A DNA stretch of 61,386 nucleotides, counting the filler. It is 15 parts of 15 records of this genome, joined end to end, with 100 filler letters (N's around TTAATTAATTAA, not from the genome) between each part and the next. Parts side by side here need not be neighbours in the genome. Positions count along the whole stretch, not along the records: positions 24,797 to 28,680 come from SRR15195285_13436; 14 more parts are not named here. The stretch is one strand, 5' to 3'. Position 1 is the first letter of the stretch. Every line of letters starts with the position of its first letter. Below the pieces are notes generated by a model. That model was not told the DNA's origin. It saw only the letters and a list, made by a program, of their open reading frames with translations, and searched no databases. Positions 12,074 through 58,589 of this stretch are shown one piece after another. Made by a program: the position numbers and the translations under genes.

Positions 12074-13191
12074 CCGGAGCCGGAGCCGGAGCCGGAGTTG
12101 GAGGACGATGCATCTCGATCCCTCAGCGCCACACAGCAGCGGGAGGCAGGCAACTGGATCCGCTGCAAGTGGTTAGAACGGCAACAGGACGTGGCGACGA
12201 GGAACACGGAATGGAGCCGCGAGGAGAAGCAAGGGCTTGTCGATGAGGTGAACTCGCAATTTGCTAGGATCGGTGAGAAGCAGACCTACACCATCGAACA
12301 CCTCGACCAGTGGCTACTGAGAATGTATATCGGCTTTGGGAGGGCGATGCGTACCTTCGAGCCCGCGGACGGCCCAGACATCCGCAGCGAACTGGCAATT
12401 CGGGAGGGTGAACGTCTCGTCATCGAGAAGGGCGCCCTGGATAAGGCTTGGTGGCGCTGTCGAAGACAGCAGCAGCGCGTGCTGCTGACGTTGAATGTGC
12501 ACAAGGCTTCCGGTGTGCGCTCCGCGGACTGGAACGGCAGCAGCGATCCATTCGTCAGAGCATTTTTTGAGGGTCACGAGATGCTTACCAAGGAAGACAG
12601 CACCGTGAAGGCCAACACGTTGGACCCAACCTGGAACGAGGCGCTCTCGATTGGAGTGCCCACCGGGCGGAGCTACGCCAGTACCATCGATTGCGACGGG
12701 CAGTTGCCGACGCTGATCGTTCGGGTCTACGATCACGACATTGTGGGCTCTGATTTTCTCGGAGAGGTCAGGATTCCACCTGCCGAATGGGCTGTGGTGA
12801 CATCGAAGGTGTCGAGCTACAAACTTGGCTTGCGAGTAGACGAGGACGGCCACGAAGACTCCAAATTCTCTCATGAAATCACTGGTGATCTCGAACTCAG
12901 TTTCGAGACCCGTCAGGTCAGCATGGAGGACCGCGGGTGGGTTCCGGCGGAGTATCTAGGTACGCACCAGTTTCCATCTCATCCAATGTACAGTCGAGCT
13001 ACACGTTCCTGCTTCGCTAGCTAGCCTATCAGTAGCCGATGTGATCTAATCTAGCCAGGACGACGGGATGTGCCGATGAGCAGAAGTGTGGGGCATGGGC
13101 AAATCAATGGTCCGACGGCGCAAACGCGGCGCTGACAGGCGGACGAGATGTGGAGTGCCGATACTGTGGGGACAATTCTTTGGCTGCATGA
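12074..13191 (+). CDS. 5'-partial protein with an SH3 domain interrupted by a C2 domain
   Basis: Frame open from the contig start (PEPEPEPE). SH3 N-half RAMRTFEP..ELAIREGERLVI..AWWRC, then C2 (ASGVRSADWNGSSDPFV..NTLDPTWNE..VYDHDIVGSDFLGEV), then SH3 C-half RGWVPAEYL. Probable intron 12960-13054; the last exon is tentative. Confidence 0.8.
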
Positions 13192-15676: not shown

Positions 15677-18600
15677 GAACCGGAGCCGGAACCGGAGCCG
15701 GAGCCGCAGCAGCCGGCGCCAGAGGCCGAGCCCGATATTGGCTCTCCTGCTTCGTCACCGCGCCGGTGGATCTCGGATGAGCTGGCGCAGGCCACAGACG
15801 CCGTGTACGCAACAGTTCAGGAGCCGGATGAAATGGCTGGCCAACCGGACGCTGGCCGGAGCGAGTGGTGGGAGCGCGTCGCAGGTGTGGACGAGGAAGA
15901 CCTGCTCGAAATAGACGTGGAAAATGGTGCTGTGCAGGACCCTACTTCGTGGTGGCAACAGGCAACCGGGGTAATGAAACACAGGGAACAGTACGTGACG
16001 ATGCGAGGTTCTGTCCTAAGTGGCGACAACGGTGTGAACGATAAAGAGGTGGACACAGTCCGGCAGTTCAAGGAGGCACCAACGGTGCTCGACGCTCGCT
16101 GGTTAGGTGACACTTCTGGGCCCGAGAAAATGAAGCCTCCGCCGCTTCCACTGGCGGGTAAGAAATATTTGGGCCAGAAGCCACTCGTTGCCCCTAAGCC
16201 GGCAATTAGAGACGTGCCCGCAGCTGTGCAGGCGATCCTCTCCGGCACGTCTGGCCCAAACTTTGGATTTGCACATCCAGACCCTGCCAAGTTCCACGTC
16301 GACCCGTTCGACGTGATCGACGATGACGGTGACAAGAAAGAGGCATTTGCAGACTCGATTCTCGATCGATCGTGCTTTGTATTTAGCGAGGAAAGCATCA
16401 TTCGGAGGGTTGCCAGGGCAACTGCCGACAGCTTCATTTTTGAGATTAGTGTGCTATTGCTGATTGCGGGTAACTCTCTGACCTTGGCGATGTACGACCC
16501 TGTTGACCCAGACTCAGATTCAAACCAAATGCTCGAACAGGTCGGCACGGTTTTCACTGTGCTGTTTGCCGTTGAAATGTTCACGAAGATCATCGCGTTC
16601 GGTTTTGCGTTCGGTGATGAGGCGTACCTTGGAAAAAACGAAAACGCTGCCTGGAACAGAATCGACTTCGTCGTTGTGACGTCAGGATTGGTCGAGCTGG
16701 CTGGTGTTGGCCCGGATCTCGGCGTGCTACGTGTAATCCGTCTACTGCGGCCGCTACGAACAATTACAAGTATCCGGGGAATGAGAGTGTTGGTCGGCAC
16801 CCTCCTTCAGCCAGAGACCCTCGCTGGTATCGGCAACGTCTGCTTGCTTTGCATGTTCATCTTCATTGTCTGGGGGATTATCGGTGTCAACATGTTCGGT
16901 GGCCAAATTCGCTCTCACTGTGTGGATATGGTCACGTTCGAGATGGATGAGGACCAGATGTGCGGCGGTAGGTACACATGCCCAGCTGGCACTTACTGTT
17001 CGGCTGTCAATCCGTTAACAGGAGAGACCAATCCGAATCCAGAGAACGGAATGATATCTTTCGACGACTTCCCCATGTCTGTGCTCACCGTATTCACAAT
17101 GATGACCCTTGAAGGCTGGACTGATGTGATGTACATGGTACAAGATGGGTTCACTCCGTGGGCATGGATCTATTTTGTCATTCTCGTTTGCTTCGGAACG
17201 TTTATTGCAATCAACATGTTTTTGGCTGTCATTTCGGCTGGATACGAAAAGATGGCAGAAGAAGTCGATGAAGAACAGACCATGAGGGACAACGCAGAAT
17301 ATCTTCTGAAGTGCTTGTCAGAGGCAATCAATGACGCCTTAACTTGGGACCACACGCAAGACGAAAAACCAGCCGAAAAAAGCACTAACATTCACGAAGG
17401 CGACTACGTGCGGCTAAAAGAGTCAGCTCACATTAAATACCCTCAGCGAGGGCGCGGGAACTTGACTCAGCCAGGTGGCCCAACGCCGCACGGCAGGGTC
17501 CTGTATTTCGACCGTGACCCTGACCCTGCTAAAGCACCTGATGACCCTGCGAACGAAGTCCAGAATCGCACCGGGACGCTGAGAGTTCCACACCGCGTCC
17601 GCGTCACCACGGTGAACGTCGACCAGTGGAAACCTCCGAAGGGGGTCGAGGTTTCGAAACTCATTCAGGATCAGCAAGGGATAAAAGAAGACTTTTGGTA
17701 TCTGCTCGACGATATCGAGAGAACACACCAGACGAGGGAAGACAACGAACGCGACAGAAACCTGGAAGAGGCGCGCAAGCAAGAATATGAGCGCTACAAG
17801 CAGCAGCGAATCGAAAAATTCTTCGACTTTTTTGATGAAGACAAGTCTGACAGCATCAACCGAAAGGAATTCGTCCGCGGCCTCAGGAAGCTTGCGCAAG
17901 CCAACCCGCCAACAGATCCAAACCAGCCCATGACCGTCACGCAAAAACCAAAGAAGAAGCGTGTTGATCCCGGAGCGATTGTCATCAAAGACCAGCGGAT
18001 GCGGGCACTGCTTCACCTGATCACAGCCGACAACCTCAAGGGCAATGATCGGGAATGGCAGAAGGAGATGACGACATTGATGTTTGGCTTCATCGATGAT
18101 GACGACTCGGGGCAACTCACCATGACTGAATTTGAAACTCAGTTTCTAGACGAACGGAACTGGAAAAATACAGAAGTTGAGCCCGACCTGACCAGAGCAG
18201 ACCTTGACAACATTGAGGAGGGCACACCAATCTTTGACGTCGTCGCACTGCACTGCAAATACATTGTAACGCGCAAGTGGTTTCAGAATTTCATTGTCAT
18301 CGTTGTGCTCGTCAACTGTGTCGTGCTGGCAAACGCTGGATATGGAAAATCGCGTGAGACCGAGCAACTGCTGGAGGATCTGAACTTCTATTGCACACTG
18401 ATATTCATTTTTGAATTCTTCGCTATGTTGATGGGCCTCGGTCCTAGAGTCTACGTTCAAGACAACTTCAACTGCTTGGACGGTTTGATAGTAATCGCGA
18501 GCATCTTAGAGCTTTTCGTCTTTAAGACCCCTGAGGAAGGGTCTGATGAAAGTGGAGGTGGCATGATTTCGGTGTTCCGTGCGCTGCGTATCTTACGGGT

Positions 18601-24796: not shown

Positions 24797-25649
24797 GGGG
24801 CGGTCGAGTGCCAAGGGTTGCACCGAGACAGTGCGCCGCCTGATATGGGCCTAGAGATTGGCGGAGAGTCGTTTCAACGCCGAAGTTCCCATGCGCGCAG
24901 CATGGGCATGTCGAACTACATTGAAGCGTTGCTTAAGGACCTCCGCGATGGGGACGAGCACACGCAAGGCGCTGATATGAGCCTCTACACGATGCGTGCA
25001 CTCTCCGAAATGATGCATCCGTCTGGTACAATCAACTTCTTGCTGACTGATTCCACATGGGAAAACGGTCCGATCCGCACTATCCTGGGCTCCCACTGCA
25101 ACGTACAGCAGCCGCCGAAGACCGACGAAGAGCCGGAGTGGATGCGACTGTCGACCCTGGTCGGTGCACCTGGTAGGTCACACACGTACCCACTTTATGT
25201 CCGTCTAGTCGCGTGGATTGACATGCTGCTGTTGCCTGTGATGTCTAGCTGGTAGTGCAATTTTTCGAGACCATCGTGTCTGGCACTCCGGTACACCCAA
25301 TCTCTCTGAGGAAGTCCGAGCAATGCCGAATATTGAGTGGGCAGCGGCATGGACAGCCGGTTCACATATTCAGAAGGTTATGCCGCACCACATTTGGGAG
25401 CAACTGTCGGATAAGGGCAAGCACAACAATCGCTTCGTTCATGTTGAGCCAGGGCTGTGGCCGCGTGGTGCTGGGGTGATGCATCCGCTTGCCACCGGGC
25501 GTCTTGCTGCGTTCGAAGCCATGGGTGGCTTGTCTGCGGCCATGGAAGATGCAGGCATGGGTGCAACCGTCGGCCGGCCTCTCGAACGAACGGATCGTAA
25601 GCCTGCTGGTGCACTCACCAAAGAACGTGATCGGCGATCCAAATTGTAG
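24797..25649 (+). CDS. PhyH-family dioxygenase, 5'-partial, peroxisomal (SKL)
   Basis: GAVECQGLHRD (HxD), GSH and, after intron 25173-25248, AGSAIFRDHRVWHSGTPN..R. Ends RRSKL*. Confidence 0.88.
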
Positions 25650-25821: not shown

Positions 25822-27492
25822 CTATCTTCGTGGCGTCCGGCCTTCCTGTTCGAACACTGAGTCTTGTGCTCTCGGTGTCGGCCTCACGAGTAAGTTGCCT
25901 GCTCCATCAACCGGATTGATCCAGCCACTCCTGCACCTTTTTGTGGTCTTGCCATCGACCGTCAATGTCTCCACGTTTAAATGCGTCCCAGCGTCATCCA
26001 CGATGACTTTCACGACCTTCACACAGTCCCCTTGCCGCAACTGTACCACATGATCAGATCCTCTCCGAGGACTTTTTCGGAGAGTAAGCCTTTGCGCTGC
26101 CACATAAAGCTGTGCTCCTTGCTCGAACTGTGCTTGCTCCAAATCTTTAGCATCAGCACGGTCAGTGGCAACTGGGTTTAGGGTCAATGCTGACGTGCTG
26201 CGACTCTTTCGGGCCTGTAGATCTGACAGAGCTGGGGGCAAGATCCTTGCAGATTCCTTAGGTTCGCTAGTCTTCTGCTCAGCCCCTTGGCTCTGATTAG
26301 GCATTCCGAATCCTGCTCCAACCGTTGTTAACACGTAGCTCTTGTGAACATGGGCGTTCGCATATACATGCTCACTCCCGTTTGCAGCTGTCAGCAACTC
26401 TTGTGGAATAGTGAAGCTGGGCGTCGCCATGACCCTCAGCGTGGCCGTAGGTATGGCCAACACGAGGACAGCTTGTATCAGGTTTGGGTCTTGGGCAAGC
26501 AGCTGGGTGGCATTATGTTTGAATCCTCCACCAGCGTATTGGTCCCAACCCAAGTCGATAGGTGATCTCGTTGTCACTGTACACTGGGCATCAATGCCAG
26601 AACCACGCTGACACATTTTTACTGCCTGCTCTTCCGTTGTGTAGTGAAACGCTAGGCTGTAGCTGCGAAGTTGCTGCTGTTGAATGCTGTGCAATGCAGC
26701 TCTCATTTCGTCCGGTGTAAATCGTGAAATGTTTTCCGGCCACACCTGCTTATGTTTGTTTGCATGCCATTGTCCGCGATGGCGCTGCAAACGCGTGATC
26801 GTAGGGTCAACTGGAGGTACAACGCTTGCCGTCGTTAGACTGACCTCCATGCCATCAATCTGGTCATCAAACACAAGTGAGTCAGCCGGAACAGTCGCGA
26901 GAGCAACGCCAATCATTGCGCCCAGATCGTCACGTGACGAAGTGAGTTGAACTCGTCTGCTAGAGCCTTGCATCATGATCTTGCCAAGCAAGTCTTTCGA
27001 TCCTTCTTCGCAAGGTTTCAATATCAGTACCTGCTGGATCTTTGTGTTGCTGAAGTATGAATGGCCGTCACAGTCTGGCACACAGTCCGAAGCAGGAACG
27101 ATATACACATACGGTCGACCAGGCACAATGCGCTTTTTGTCTCTGTTCTCTAGTGACGGTATACGCACGACTAAAAGCACCTCGAGCTTCTTTGCCCACA
27201 GTCCCCAATTAGGATATTCTTCAGAAGGAGCCGGCTTTGGCATCACTTCATACCATTTCGACCCCCACAATTTTTCGCCGCATCTTTTTGCAAATGCGGA
27301 GCCTCCGTACTCATCCCAGCCTAGGTCGACTGGATTTTGGAGACAAACAGACACCCCACCGCCTAGCTGACCTTGCGTCGATGCTCGGATGCCTAGACCA
27401 CTAAGAATAAGTCTAGCACTATCAAGGTCAGTGAAGTGAAAGCCGAGTTCATGCGAAGCAGGCAGGTGCGGGTAAGCAGAAGGATTAAAGCT
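25822..27492 (-). CDS. Protein with two degenerate ART/GIG2-like repeats and a C-terminal SH3b-like domain; 5' end unresolved
   Basis: The frame stays open upstream of the listed ORF to 27492: LGFHFTDLDSARLILSGLGIRASTQGQLGGGVSVCLQNPVDLGWDEYGG. A second copy reads LAFHYTTEEQAVKM..SPIDLGWDQYAGG. The C-terminus has LTLRKSP..S..VVQLRQGDCVKV..GWI. Confidence 0.55.
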   Translation of the reverse strand, partial: SFNPSAYPHLPASHELGFHFTDLDSARLILSGLGIRASTQGQLGGGVSVCLQNPVDLGWDEYGGSAFAKRCGEKLWGSKWYEVMPKPAPSEEYPNWGLWAKKLEVLLVVRIPSLENRDKKRIVPGRPYVYIVPASDCVPDCDGHSYFSNTKIQQVLILKPCEEGSKDLLGKIMMQGSSRRVQLTSSRDDLGAMIGVALATVPADSLVFDDQIDGMEVSLTTASVVPPVDPTITRLQRHRGQWHANKHKQVWPENISRFTPDEMRAALHSIQQQQLRSYSLAFHYTTEEQAVKMCQRGSGIDAQCTVTTRSPIDLGWDQYAGGGFKHNATQLLAQDPNLIQAVLVLAIPTATLRVMATPSFTIPQELLTAANGSEHVYANAHVHKSYVLTTVGAGFGMPNQSQGAEQKTSEPKESARILPPALSDLQARKSRSTSALTLNPVATDRADAKDLEQAQFEQGAQLYVAAQRLTLRKSPRRGSDHVVQLRQGDCVKVVKVIVDDAGTHLNVETLTVDGKTTKRCRSGWINPVDGAGNLLVRPTPRAQDSVFEQEGRTPRR

Positions 27493-27591
27493 TTACTGGT
27501 CGGCTATTCACAAATTTCGCACACTCATCGCAGGCCGAAGGCGCAAGCATGCTGTAGCCATTCAGCCGGCGGCCCGCAAGACTTGCCTTCC

Positions 27592-27639
27592 GGTGGTCTG
27601 ACACCGGGCATAAGGGCCTTGTGCCAATGTCAGACCACC
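27592..27639. repeat. 48-bp palindromic hairpin element, copy A
   Basis: GGTGGTCTGACA-cc-GGGCATAAGG-g-CCTTGTGCC-aa-TGTCAGACCACC, with perfect 12-bp terminal inverted repeats plus an inner stem. Confidence 0.85.
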
Positions 27640-27878
27640 CACGCAATTGCGTCGTATCAGTCGTCTCCGATCATGCACAAGCTGACGACAGGAACGACAA
27701 TCCAGAAGATGGCGATCCTGACGAGTGCTCGTCACTAACGGCGGCCGTGTCCACGAGGTAGGCAGGGGAGTGTGATCCGGGCGAAGCAGGTTTAGGCGAC
27801 AATGGGAGGTAGCACCAGGCATGCTGGCAGGAATGGAAGACACTGGGTGTGTGGGAAAGTCTGCTGAAAGGATTTCCA

Positions 27879-28680
27879 TTATCGTCCCGCTCGTTTTGCT
27901 TTCCGCTTGGCTGCGAGGGCGGAGCGCAGGCCAGCTTTCGCGGCAGCATCGCCTGGCGAAGTCTCGATAATGTCCGCGAATAAGTCTGCAGCACGCTGAC
28001 AGTCCGCCGCCGTGGGGTGCTCCGCCGCGAGCACTGCCTCGGCATCTGCTATACCCCACTCAACCGACGAAGGTTGTACCGCACGATCGGTTTCGTTTGC
28101 GACCTCTGCGACGGCAGGGCTGTCTGCCATAGCTGCGGGAGGTGCCGCAGCCACCTCCGCAGACGTGTCGACAGCTGGGATGTCCGTGCTGAAAGCTGGG
28201 GCCTCCACTCTTGCGTCACCATCTGGTTGCCCCTGCACCGGCAACCCCACTGGCTCTGAGGCAGCGCTGTCGGCTGGAACGGCAACGGCCACACTGCTAC
28301 TCGTGTTGCTGGAACTAGCGTCACCAGCCGACTCCCGCTCGCCGTCCTCGCTGGCGGCATCGTCTTCGTCGGCTGCCGTGGCTACTGCTGGCGACCAGGT
28401 AGCATCTTGCAACGCTGCGATGGGAAATTTCAAGTTGGTCGTGTCAGTTCTCCCGCCTTCTTTTTCTTCCACCCACCGCACCTTCACCCCGCCATCCTCA
28501 CAGACCTCGGAGATCTCACCCGATGGCCCTTCTGCCCTGCTCCTCCGCGCAGGATTCCACTTCACGCCCGCATCGAAGCATGCCGCCTCGGCCTCTACTT
28601 CCGGTCGGACGCACACAGCCATCCCTACAGTCGCGTCTTGTATTTGTGGTGCTGGCTCGGGCTCGGGCTCGGGCTCGGGC
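27879..28680 (-). CDS. 5'-partial protein: Mind-bomb-type SH3 repeat (REP)-like domain, acidic linker, TPR-like C-terminal helix pair
   Basis: Open from a contig-end PEPEPEP run. GMAVCVRP..KWNP.R..G..GEISEVCEDGGVKVRW..FPIAAL resembles the MIB SH3-like repeat. Ends AADLFADIIETSPGDAAAKAGL..*. Confidence 0.5.
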
Positions 28681-53905: not shown

Positions 53906-53932
53906 TGATATAGGGCATAAGGCCTTATGCCC
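53906..53932. repeat. Palindromic element, copy B (truncated by contig end)
   Basis: TGATATA-GGGCATAAGGCCTTATGCCC, a perfect 20-bp palindrome at 53913-53932. The assembly breaks here. Confidence 0.85.
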
Positions 53933-57950: not shown

Positions 57951-57986
57951 TGACGCCGGGCATAAGGGGTCCTATGCCCTCTGTCA
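57951..57986. repeat. Palindromic element, copy C
   Basis: TGAC-gcc-GGGCATAAGG-ggt-CCTATGCCC-tct-GTCA. Confidence 0.8.
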
Positions 57987-58589
57987 CGCTACGCCGACAT
58001 AATGCTCGGCAATAGCCGGGCAAAAAGGGCATCATGGTTTTCGCAATCGTGTATGTCACCCCTCGTTTGTATCCACGGTAGGGGTGCACAAGTCAGAGTG
58101 TCCCGGATCGCGAGAAAACATGCGGGGATCTCAGGTCCCAAGAACAGATAGCGATCCCGACAAGTAGCACTCAAAAGTTGGCGAACCTGGGAGGGGGTCG
58201 GAAGTTGTAGCCAAATTGGGAAGAGAACCACAGGTTTATTGCTTAGAACTGCCAAAGTTGTCAACAAGAGTTTCAGTTTTGCACTTTAGGGTAAATACGA
58301 TTGTCGCAACCTGGGCACTCCCTATCGAATAGACCTTAAGACGTGACATACTCCATGGATAGTACGCGTGTACCACTGTACCTGCTGGGTACACTAACTG
58401 CGTGTAGGCGCGCGTGTAGGGAAAGGGATATATCCCTAGCCCGAGTAGGACGCAGGACGTCGGTTCCTACTACGGGTAGGCCCTAGGGCTACGTAGTTAG
58501 TATCTAGCTAGGTTACGCGCGTGCTGCTGGCGCAGTACTGTAGCGCGCTGTACGTCACTGTCATACGTACCGTACACCGGATCGACTCT

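Follow-up and report, generated by a model that had tools for sequence, protein, structure and literature searches.

The window analysed here is a stretch of 61,386 nucleotides, made up of 15 contigs (3,025–6,375 nt each, 51–59% G+C) joined by N/TTAATTAATTAA linkers. Three different contigs each carry a short hairpin of similar sequence. All-against-all BLAST of the contigs listed no alignment between any two of them. What are these hairpins, and how did they come to be shared? The original prediction, made from the DNA letters, described a dispersed palindromic element. All three hairpins were found where it had placed them, and their sequences read as it described. The features are as follows.

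27592..27639, no strand: extended palindrome of copy 1, comprising the unit and 7-nt inverted flanks (GGTGGTC / GACCACC)
27599..27632, no strand: copy 1, a decayed 34-bp palindromic solo unit, TGACACC GGGCATAAGG G CCTTGTGCC AA TGTCA
53906..53932, no strand: copy 2, TGATATA and a perfect 20-bp core; the contig end cuts off the right arm
57951..57986, no strand: copy 3, a 36-bp unit with a GG centre, TGACGCC GGGCATAAGG GG TCCTATGCCC TCT GTCA
57987..58022, + strand: decayed A-type subterminal remnant beside copy 3 (cgctacgccgacataatgctcggcaat...), resembling intact ends by BLAST

The predicted consensus was borne out as TGAY-nnn-GGGCATAAGG-(0-3)-CCTTATGCCC-nnn-RTCA, and this sequence is carried by 63 loci among the at least 116 listed in the metagenome scan described below. 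Two further details were also correct. The additional arms of copy 1 are perfect over 7 nt on each side, and copy 2 is a perfect 20-bp palindrome at an assembly break. The contig stops at 53932 and the right nnn-RTCA arm of copy 2 is absent from the assembly; its TGATATA subtype recurs elsewhere, in L020 and L090. The statement that symmetry is largely kept was borne out only in part, given the state of copies 1 and 3. In copy 1 the nnn positions do not pair, and the right arm carries one substitution and has lost one base. In copy 3, located 64 nt from its contig start, the right arm is decayed and the nnn positions are again mismatched. Hence, copies 1 and 3 are decaying. The copies in the window are solo or decayed units and appear to be relics.

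We compared the window with shuffled sequences. The exact 10-mer GGGCATAAGG was matched 4 times, at three places; in 100 dinucleotide shuffles the mean was 0.09. None of the 100 shuffles reached 4 and chance is thus excluded for GGGCATAAGG. When one mismatch was allowed the excess was weak (5 vs 2.46; 8/100 shuffles reached 5). As single-stranded DNA, copy 1 folded with −18.2 kcal/mol (z −4.86; 0/200 shuffles as good), copy 3 with −8.4 kcal/mol (z −1.99; 6/200 as good) and the truncated copy 2 with −7.2 kcal/mol (z −3.0; 1/200 as good). An Rfam scan of the whole window at the gathering score gave 0 matches and a tRNA scan of the window found nothing. The ORFs overlapping the window hairpins had no Pfam match at E ≤ 0.01, and copy 1 is located between two minus-strand genes. 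These observations are consistent with the proposal that the hairpins lie outside coding exons.

Public metagenome contigs were scanned once, using a pattern that fits all three window copies. The scan returned at least 116 loci. Among those listed, 63 were kept, having TGAY or RTCA correctly placed beside the core; 53 were set aside as chance matches or other hairpins. The latter include two other repeated hairpin families, both small and unrelated to the unit (L005, L019, L039, L080 and L097; L018, L033, L059, L071, L073 and L114); the contigs of one are long and of high coverage, and those of the other are AT-rich. The 63 kept loci come from 24 assembly identifiers (among the matches listed) and may stem from several organisms. 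The unit is 34–37 bp in size and has sharp TG...CA boundaries. Similarity between copies starts exactly at TGAY, and the flanks are unrelated.

Contigs from three seawater DNA runs (X1, X2 and X4) and one RNA run (X9) were aligned to the contig carrying copy 1. Summed contig depth in the bin 27527–27656 was 64.6/156.4/43.9/22.7 in the four runs, compared with ~1–7 in neighbouring bins. Depth over the unit was thus several-fold to ~25-fold that of the flanks in the three DNA runs and the RNA run; since all organisms in a sample are mixed, these ratios describe multiplicity and not copies per genome. In X1, X2 and X4 another locus aligns to just 27599–27632, with three differences, and is unlike the window on both sides. 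Contigs of the 31-letter core had depths of 95 and 24 in X4, compared with 2–2.5 for the flanks, and one such contig in X9 had a depth of 80. Together with the metagenome loci, the depth over the unit upholds the original prediction of a dispersed, high-copy family with a palindromic core. The unit is not an internal fragment of one known transposon. Nor is it an amplification artefact, being found in independent metagenome assemblies and runs. No empty site was seen at copy 1: contigs of X1, X2 and X4 bridge the locus with the unit present, and in the contigs of these three DNA runs there is no indel or joint at the hairpin.

The family appears to be hosted by uncultured marine protists. Relatives of the element genes described below bear EukProt names. 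The perfect palindrome had 0 matches in 185,579 prokaryote species genomes (one genome each) and 0 matches in IMG/VR. A relaxed pattern gave 14 IMG/VR matches, approximately the chance number by a rough estimate, and none of these had a TGAY partner or motif arrays. A viral origin was rejected, given that IMG/VR has no match to the perfect palindrome.

Many of the metagenome units are termini of something longer. Of the 63 loci (among the matches listed), 23 have at least two GGCATA motifs, all oriented alike and always confined to a single side of the palindrome. Such array-bearing ends typically have 3–4 direct GGGCATA(C/A) motifs inward of the palindrome, within ~130 bp, at distances of ~40–60, 63–83 and 87–116 nt from the end. 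The consensus of 73 motif copies is GGGCATAC(A/T). Among array-bearing loci, similarity starts at TGAY and extends 80–330 nt inward. This subterminal sequence falls into three mosaic subfamilies, and the nnn type of the palindrome tracks the subfamily. Copy 3 has a decayed form of one of the three as its right flank: in BLAST, window 57951–58022 (contig W15) is 74.7% identical to L116 over 79 columns. Except for these 79 columns adjoining copy 3, the window contigs match the metagenome loci at the unit alone.

One locus has both ends. At L092 294–494 there is a palindrome, two GGGCATA motifs, two inverted TATGCCC motifs and a second palindrome, which together form a complete copy of 201 bp. 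The second palindrome, 5 nt from the contig end, has a different centre (TGATAGA-GGGCATAC-GACC-GTATGCCC-TCTATCA). From this layout, the ends are therefore inverted repeats, each starting with a full palindrome. L092 is the sole two-ended copy seen, and terminal inverted repeats at both ends, as in MITEs or cut-and-paste elements, were observed in this copy alone. The family is also wider than the search pattern used. Between copies, the inner sides are unrelated beyond ~130–500 nt from the end, and therefore some of the presumed interior may be host flank.

We considered whether half-palindromes also serve as ends. There were 114 half-site matches on both strands of the listed loci, of which 16 had no regular partner. 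The idea was rejected; except at L008, L095 and L111, the partnerless half-sites are decayed or duplicated full units. A few loci have unusual arrangements. In L088 (about 9–90) one unit is nested within the centre of another, in L026 (1067–1115) the right arm is duplicated in tandem, and L069 (388–421, oriented from its end) has a variant unit with the centre GGCATATGGCCATATGCC. L042 carries 27-nt inverted repeats (736–762 / 1364–1390) that are 601 nt apart and directly abut the palindrome-ended element on its outer side. This pair is probably a different small transposon.

The symmetry of the unit was assessed in an alignment of 52 units (27 distinct rows). The selection pattern fixed columns 1–3, 8–16, 22–30 and 35–37. 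Just four column pairs were hence free to vary. Overall, 96.3% of cells were paired. At the Y/R column pair, 4–34, the 27 distinct rows comprised 20 with C-G, 7 with T-A and none unpaired, and at the nnn column pairs 5–33, 6–32 and 7–31 there were 3–4 pair types each. The covariation score was 0.195, compared with 0.063 in shuffles, and 0/500 shuffles reached it. Thus, the stem covariation envisaged at the outset was found, at both the nnn and Y/R pairs, and it could stem from the common ancestry of subfamilies. Among the 19 non-Watson-Crick cells, only 3 were G-U (G-T); hence, nothing points to selection at the RNA level, and the RNA hairpin put forward in the original prediction gained no specific support. 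A dimeric-protein binding site alone, another of its suggestions, leaves the co-variation of nnn unexplained.

Array-bearing ends and solo units differ in symmetry. The outer 7+7 bases were perfectly symmetric in 20/22 array-bearing ends, compared with 11/21 solo units (Fisher p 0.007). Within L092, the palindromes are unlike each other and each is self-symmetric. At the unit centre, 0–3 extra bases of any sequence are tolerated. Taken together, ends are kept self-complementary individually while they are part of an element, and solo units lose symmetry. This favours a constraint at the level of the hairpin, or the copying of one arm from the other. The loss of symmetry in solo units argues against a host function for them. 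The solo units L081 and L101 are chimeric, with halves of different subtypes, which fits deletion between two unlike ends.

Insertion of elements with terminal inverted repeats usually duplicates the target. For the 47 copies with both flanks, matching 3-mers, 4-mers and 5-mers numbered 0, 2 and 0, respectively, which equals the shuffled null. Target-site duplications, a mark of insertion raised in the original prediction, are thus not seen in these copies at the fixed length of MITEs and cut-and-paste elements. The 71 outer flanks contained no target motif and A was depleted at −1 (7/71, p 0.014). The palindrome extended into the flanks by 2 nt or more in 3/47 copies; the extension was 7 nt in copy 1 and at least 12 nt in L074, where it is at the contig start and may be an assembly fold-back.

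Small genes are found next inward of the arrays, reading towards the element end. A-type ends, and some C-type ends, carry a gene for a 59–63-aa cysteine-rich protein with one hydrophobic helix and an acidic tail, predicted to be a membrane protein. The stop codon is ~150 nt from the element end. Five copies of the ORF differ chiefly at third codon positions (188/145/333). The protein has 53 clusters of relatives, nearly all of 50–92 aa; some have the EukProt names COSAG02 or COSAG03, and one occurs on 37 contigs. Other ends carry a gene for a ~77-aa protein with 44 representative relatives. Four large repeat proteins among these 44 (TPR, Big_3, WD40 and one with scattered weak matches) were dismissed as spurious. 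For the 77-aa ORF, neither Pfam (above the cut-off) nor PHROG, PADLOC or PDB sequence searches gave a match. Its structure is predicted with fair confidence (mean pLDDT 80.7), and Foldseek returned nothing at E ≤ 0.001. The best VIA match of the model was the DNA-binding part of the HNH homing endonuclease I-HmuI (1u3e_M; Z 4.9, rmsd 4.4, 59 aligned), followed by AcrVA3 (Z 4.3), a Paulinella DNA-binding protein (Z 4.0) and the DNA-binding domain of I-TevI (Z 2.9). All of these scores are below the level that is meaningful for the tool. Hence, that the 77-aa protein may bind DNA is a lead only.

Deeper inside, gene content varies between copies. Inside the L043 end there is a TIR domain gene (310–1020, − strand; Pfam TIR_2, E 9.4e-11), and an ORF inside the L079 end (1–537, + strand) matches a PADLOC 2TM effector (E 5.6e-7). 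These immune-effector-like genes could be cargo or neighbouring host genes. L078 contains a 260-aa ORF, part of a family of 439-aa proteins, with 7 relatives of which none has a Pfam family; there was no ESM Atlas match of ≥0.9. Just the N-terminal two thirds match the relatives. The ORF was thus dropped as an element gene and may be a captured or interrupted host gene. A transposase ORF had been anticipated by the original prediction. In the Pfam scan of 163 ORFs or proteins from the loci and their relatives (38 + 9 new + 116/117), covering interiors of up to ~1.4 kb per contig, there was no transposase, recombinase or HUH domain; specifically, no Y1 HUH transposase gene, Rep domain or DDE transposase was present in these interiors. 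In tblastn, 14 family proteins had no match to the window better than E 0.014.

We consider it likely that the three hairpins are copies of a 34-bp end module, belonging to a family of mobile elements in uncultured marine protists. In the mechanism that we propose, GGGCATA would be recognised by a sequence-specific protein, both as the inverted pair in the palindrome and as the direct repeats alongside. Each end would fold as a DNA hairpin, or be self-copied, during mobilisation, and no staggered cut of the target would be made. Folding or self-copying would explain the self-complementary ends, the nnn differences between subfamilies, the variable centre and the missing target duplication. Solo modules would be minimal copies, or remnants of deletion between two terminal palindromes; the latter route is possible because the terminal palindromes are also direct repeats of each other. 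Once solo, modules would decay. We infer that an enzyme mobilises the family. The 5′-TG...CA-3′ edges recall DDE integrases, and the hairpins and missing duplication recall HUH enzymes and rolling-hairpin replicons. Hence the options named in the original prediction (a minimal MITE, a REP-like element or a hairpin-using transposase) pointed in the right direction, but the role as a terminal module of inverted-repeat elements with GGGCATA arrays and small genes was unforeseen, as was the relic-like state of the window copies.

Other explanations share some of this evidence. The hairpins could be artefacts of whole-genome amplification or of assembly at palindromes, to which we give almost no credence. 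Copy 2 does end its contig, many metagenome copies are within ~60 nt of a contig end (among the matches listed) and L074 has a 25-nt fold-back at its contig start. However, palindromes break assemblies but create no shared sequence. The same unit is found, with unrelated flanks on both sides, in 24 independent assemblies (among the matches listed), and copy 1 is bridged by contigs of three separate DNA runs. A less easily dismissed, though still unlikely, alternative is that the 34-bp unit is itself mobile. It would consist of two abutting 17-bp inverted ends, copied in trans, and the longer forms with arrays would be relatives rather than parents. Solo units of one subtype at many unrelated places fit this well (the ACC subtype is found in 9/21 solos and 7/19 one-flank copies), as do the exact unit boundaries, the unit nested in the centre of another in L088, and the lack of target duplication, which is also a property of REP elements. 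Two papers attribute the proliferation of palindromic units of that kind, as a supposition, to Y1 HUH transposases (PMC6006769, PMC3337134). On the other hand, solo units are the less symmetric class (11/21 vs 20/22), as expected of relics, the chimeric solos L081 and L101 fit deletion between unlike ends, and a candidate enzyme was not seen in the available interiors (up to ~1.4 kb).

It is improbable that the palindrome is a host signal, either a transcription-end hairpin or a dimeric DNA-binding site, that was spread by or taken from a mobile element. An RNA contig does run from the stop codon of the gene at 27879–28622 (− strand) to the hairpin (27628–27883), and bins 27267–27526, beyond the hairpin, have no RNA cover where DNA contigs continue. 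The small genes of the element also read towards the palindrome, and ORFs of ≥120 aa beside solo units are oriented towards the hairpin in 9 cases and away in 5. However, the RNA contigs are from one run, and are a weak hint at best, and 9 vs 5 is not different from chance. Furthermore, solo units lose symmetry, G-U pairs show no enrichment (3 of 19 non-Watson-Crick cells), Rfam gave 0 matches in the window and co-variation at nnn would not follow from a protein site alone. We are still more sceptical that the palindrome is the core of a site-specific recombinase system, with the GGGCATA arrays as arm-type sites and the solo units as unoccupied targets. The comparison here is to the attL/attR layout of integrase-type elements, which is resembled by an inverted-repeat core at the edge, direct repeats inside and no target duplication; a small gene, whose predicted fold is weakly like that of DNA-binding proteins, adjoins the arrays. 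Yet in 20/22 ends the outer half of the palindrome agrees with both the inner half and the array subfamily, and hence it does not look target-derived. The two ends of L092, each self-symmetric and mutually different, are not hybrids. In addition, a fixed crossover spacing would not tolerate a centre that varies by 0–3 nt, and no recombinase gene was found in the available interiors (up to ~1.4 kb). The end module of a mobile-element family thus remains our preferred reading.

How does such a family compare with known systems? Ac/Ds, En/Spm and IR/DR elements are TIR elements with several subterminal binding sites. Like these multi-binding-site DNA transposons and MITEs, the family has inverted ends, one short motif repeated inside each end, a short gene-less derivative (201 bp, L092) and many copies at unrelated places. 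Unlike them, its ends start with a full 34-bp palindrome and the target is not duplicated. The interiors covered (up to ~1.4 kb) contained no DDE transposase. Helitrons have 5′-TC ... CTRR-3′ ends, with one hairpin near the 3′ end, and insert between A and T. Conversely, both ends of this family are TGAY...RTCA palindromes and A precedes the unit in just 7/71 flanks. Solo LTRs are end-pieces left by recombination between element ends. Our solo units are alike in being single end-pieces that would follow recombination between two identical ends, but each is a 34-bp palindrome, not the long terminal repeat of a retroelement, and the deletion route is one that we infer. The inverted terminal repeats of parvoviruses are used in rolling-hairpin replication. 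They share a fold-back terminal palindrome, short protein-binding repeats beside it, the same layout at both ends and no target duplication. The differences are that the repeats here are outside the palindrome, that there is no viral match in IMG/VR and that the host appears to be a protist. No Rep or capsid gene was seen in the available interiors (up to ~1.4 kb).

Hairpin-based movement has been worked out mainly in bacteria and parvoviruses. REP/REPIN-RAYT and IS200/IS605 systems (PMC6006769) share with the family palindromic units of 20–40 bp, many copies, positions outside genes, no target duplication, hairpin ends and inverted pairs. The high copy number of the palindromic unit is common to both (here 34–37 bp, with several- to ~25-fold depth) but the host is not, the family being apparently eukaryotic, with the perfect palindrome in 0/185,579 prokaryote species genomes. 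Unlike IS200/IS605, there is no fixed flanking tetra- or pentanucleotide, the 71 outer flanks having A depletion at −1 only. No Y1 HUH gene of the REP/REPIN-RAYT kind was seen in the loci (interiors of up to ~1.4 kb). The conserved edge is TGAY/RTCA, and not the GTAG or CGTC tags that PMC3733652 names. Spy transposons are similar in being eukaryotic and having terminal inverted repeats with no target-site duplication (PMC4122938). According to the same paper, Spy inserts precisely between AAA and TTT, and its DDE transposase is related to PIF/IS5; the flanks of the family show no AAA/TTT.

No description of the family was found in the literature collection searched for the unit sequence, for Picozoa transposable elements or for terminal palindromes without target duplication. 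The family is real and widespread, and appears to be undescribed. Its combination of features, namely perfect self-symmetric palindromic ends, arrays of the same motif and no target duplication, fits none of the eukaryotic superfamilies compared and points to hairpin-based movement. Tentatively, and with some doubt, we raise the possibility of a new class of eukaryotic DNA transposon. Its members would have two self-templated hairpin ends, make no target duplication, encode a small private GGGCATA-binding protein and carry variable cargo, including immune-type genes. By analogy, such a class might be a eukaryotic counterpart of IS200/IS605, REPIN-RAYT or rolling-hairpin replicons. The transposons of uncultured protist lineages are almost unexplored. 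If hairpin-based movement is confirmed, the family would widen the range of transposition mechanisms in eukaryotes and account for one frequent source of contig breaks in single-cell and metagenome assemblies such as these. The 34-bp unit is a simple marker for such elements and their hosts in marine data.

Some further observations concern the window itself. At 27464/27465, 135 nt to the left of copy 1, a 5,898-nt X2 contig (97% alike up to 27464) and an X4 contig (alike from 27465) break, and are unlike the window beyond. The pattern is suggestive of a structural variant or of a difference in insertions. A non-palindromic stretch of 34 nt (27542–27575) is matched by other X2 and X9 contigs that are unlike it on both sides; it is absent from the at least 116 metagenome loci listed and may be another short dispersed repeat. 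A 41-nt stretch (25130–25170) within the ORF at 24818–25255 is matched by other contigs in all four runs and is either a conserved coding motif or a repeat. Finally, hexamer microsatellites, (CCGGAG)n or (CTCGGG)n, start or end several contigs (12074–12109, 15680–15730 and 28656–28679) and are another frequent break point of this assembly.
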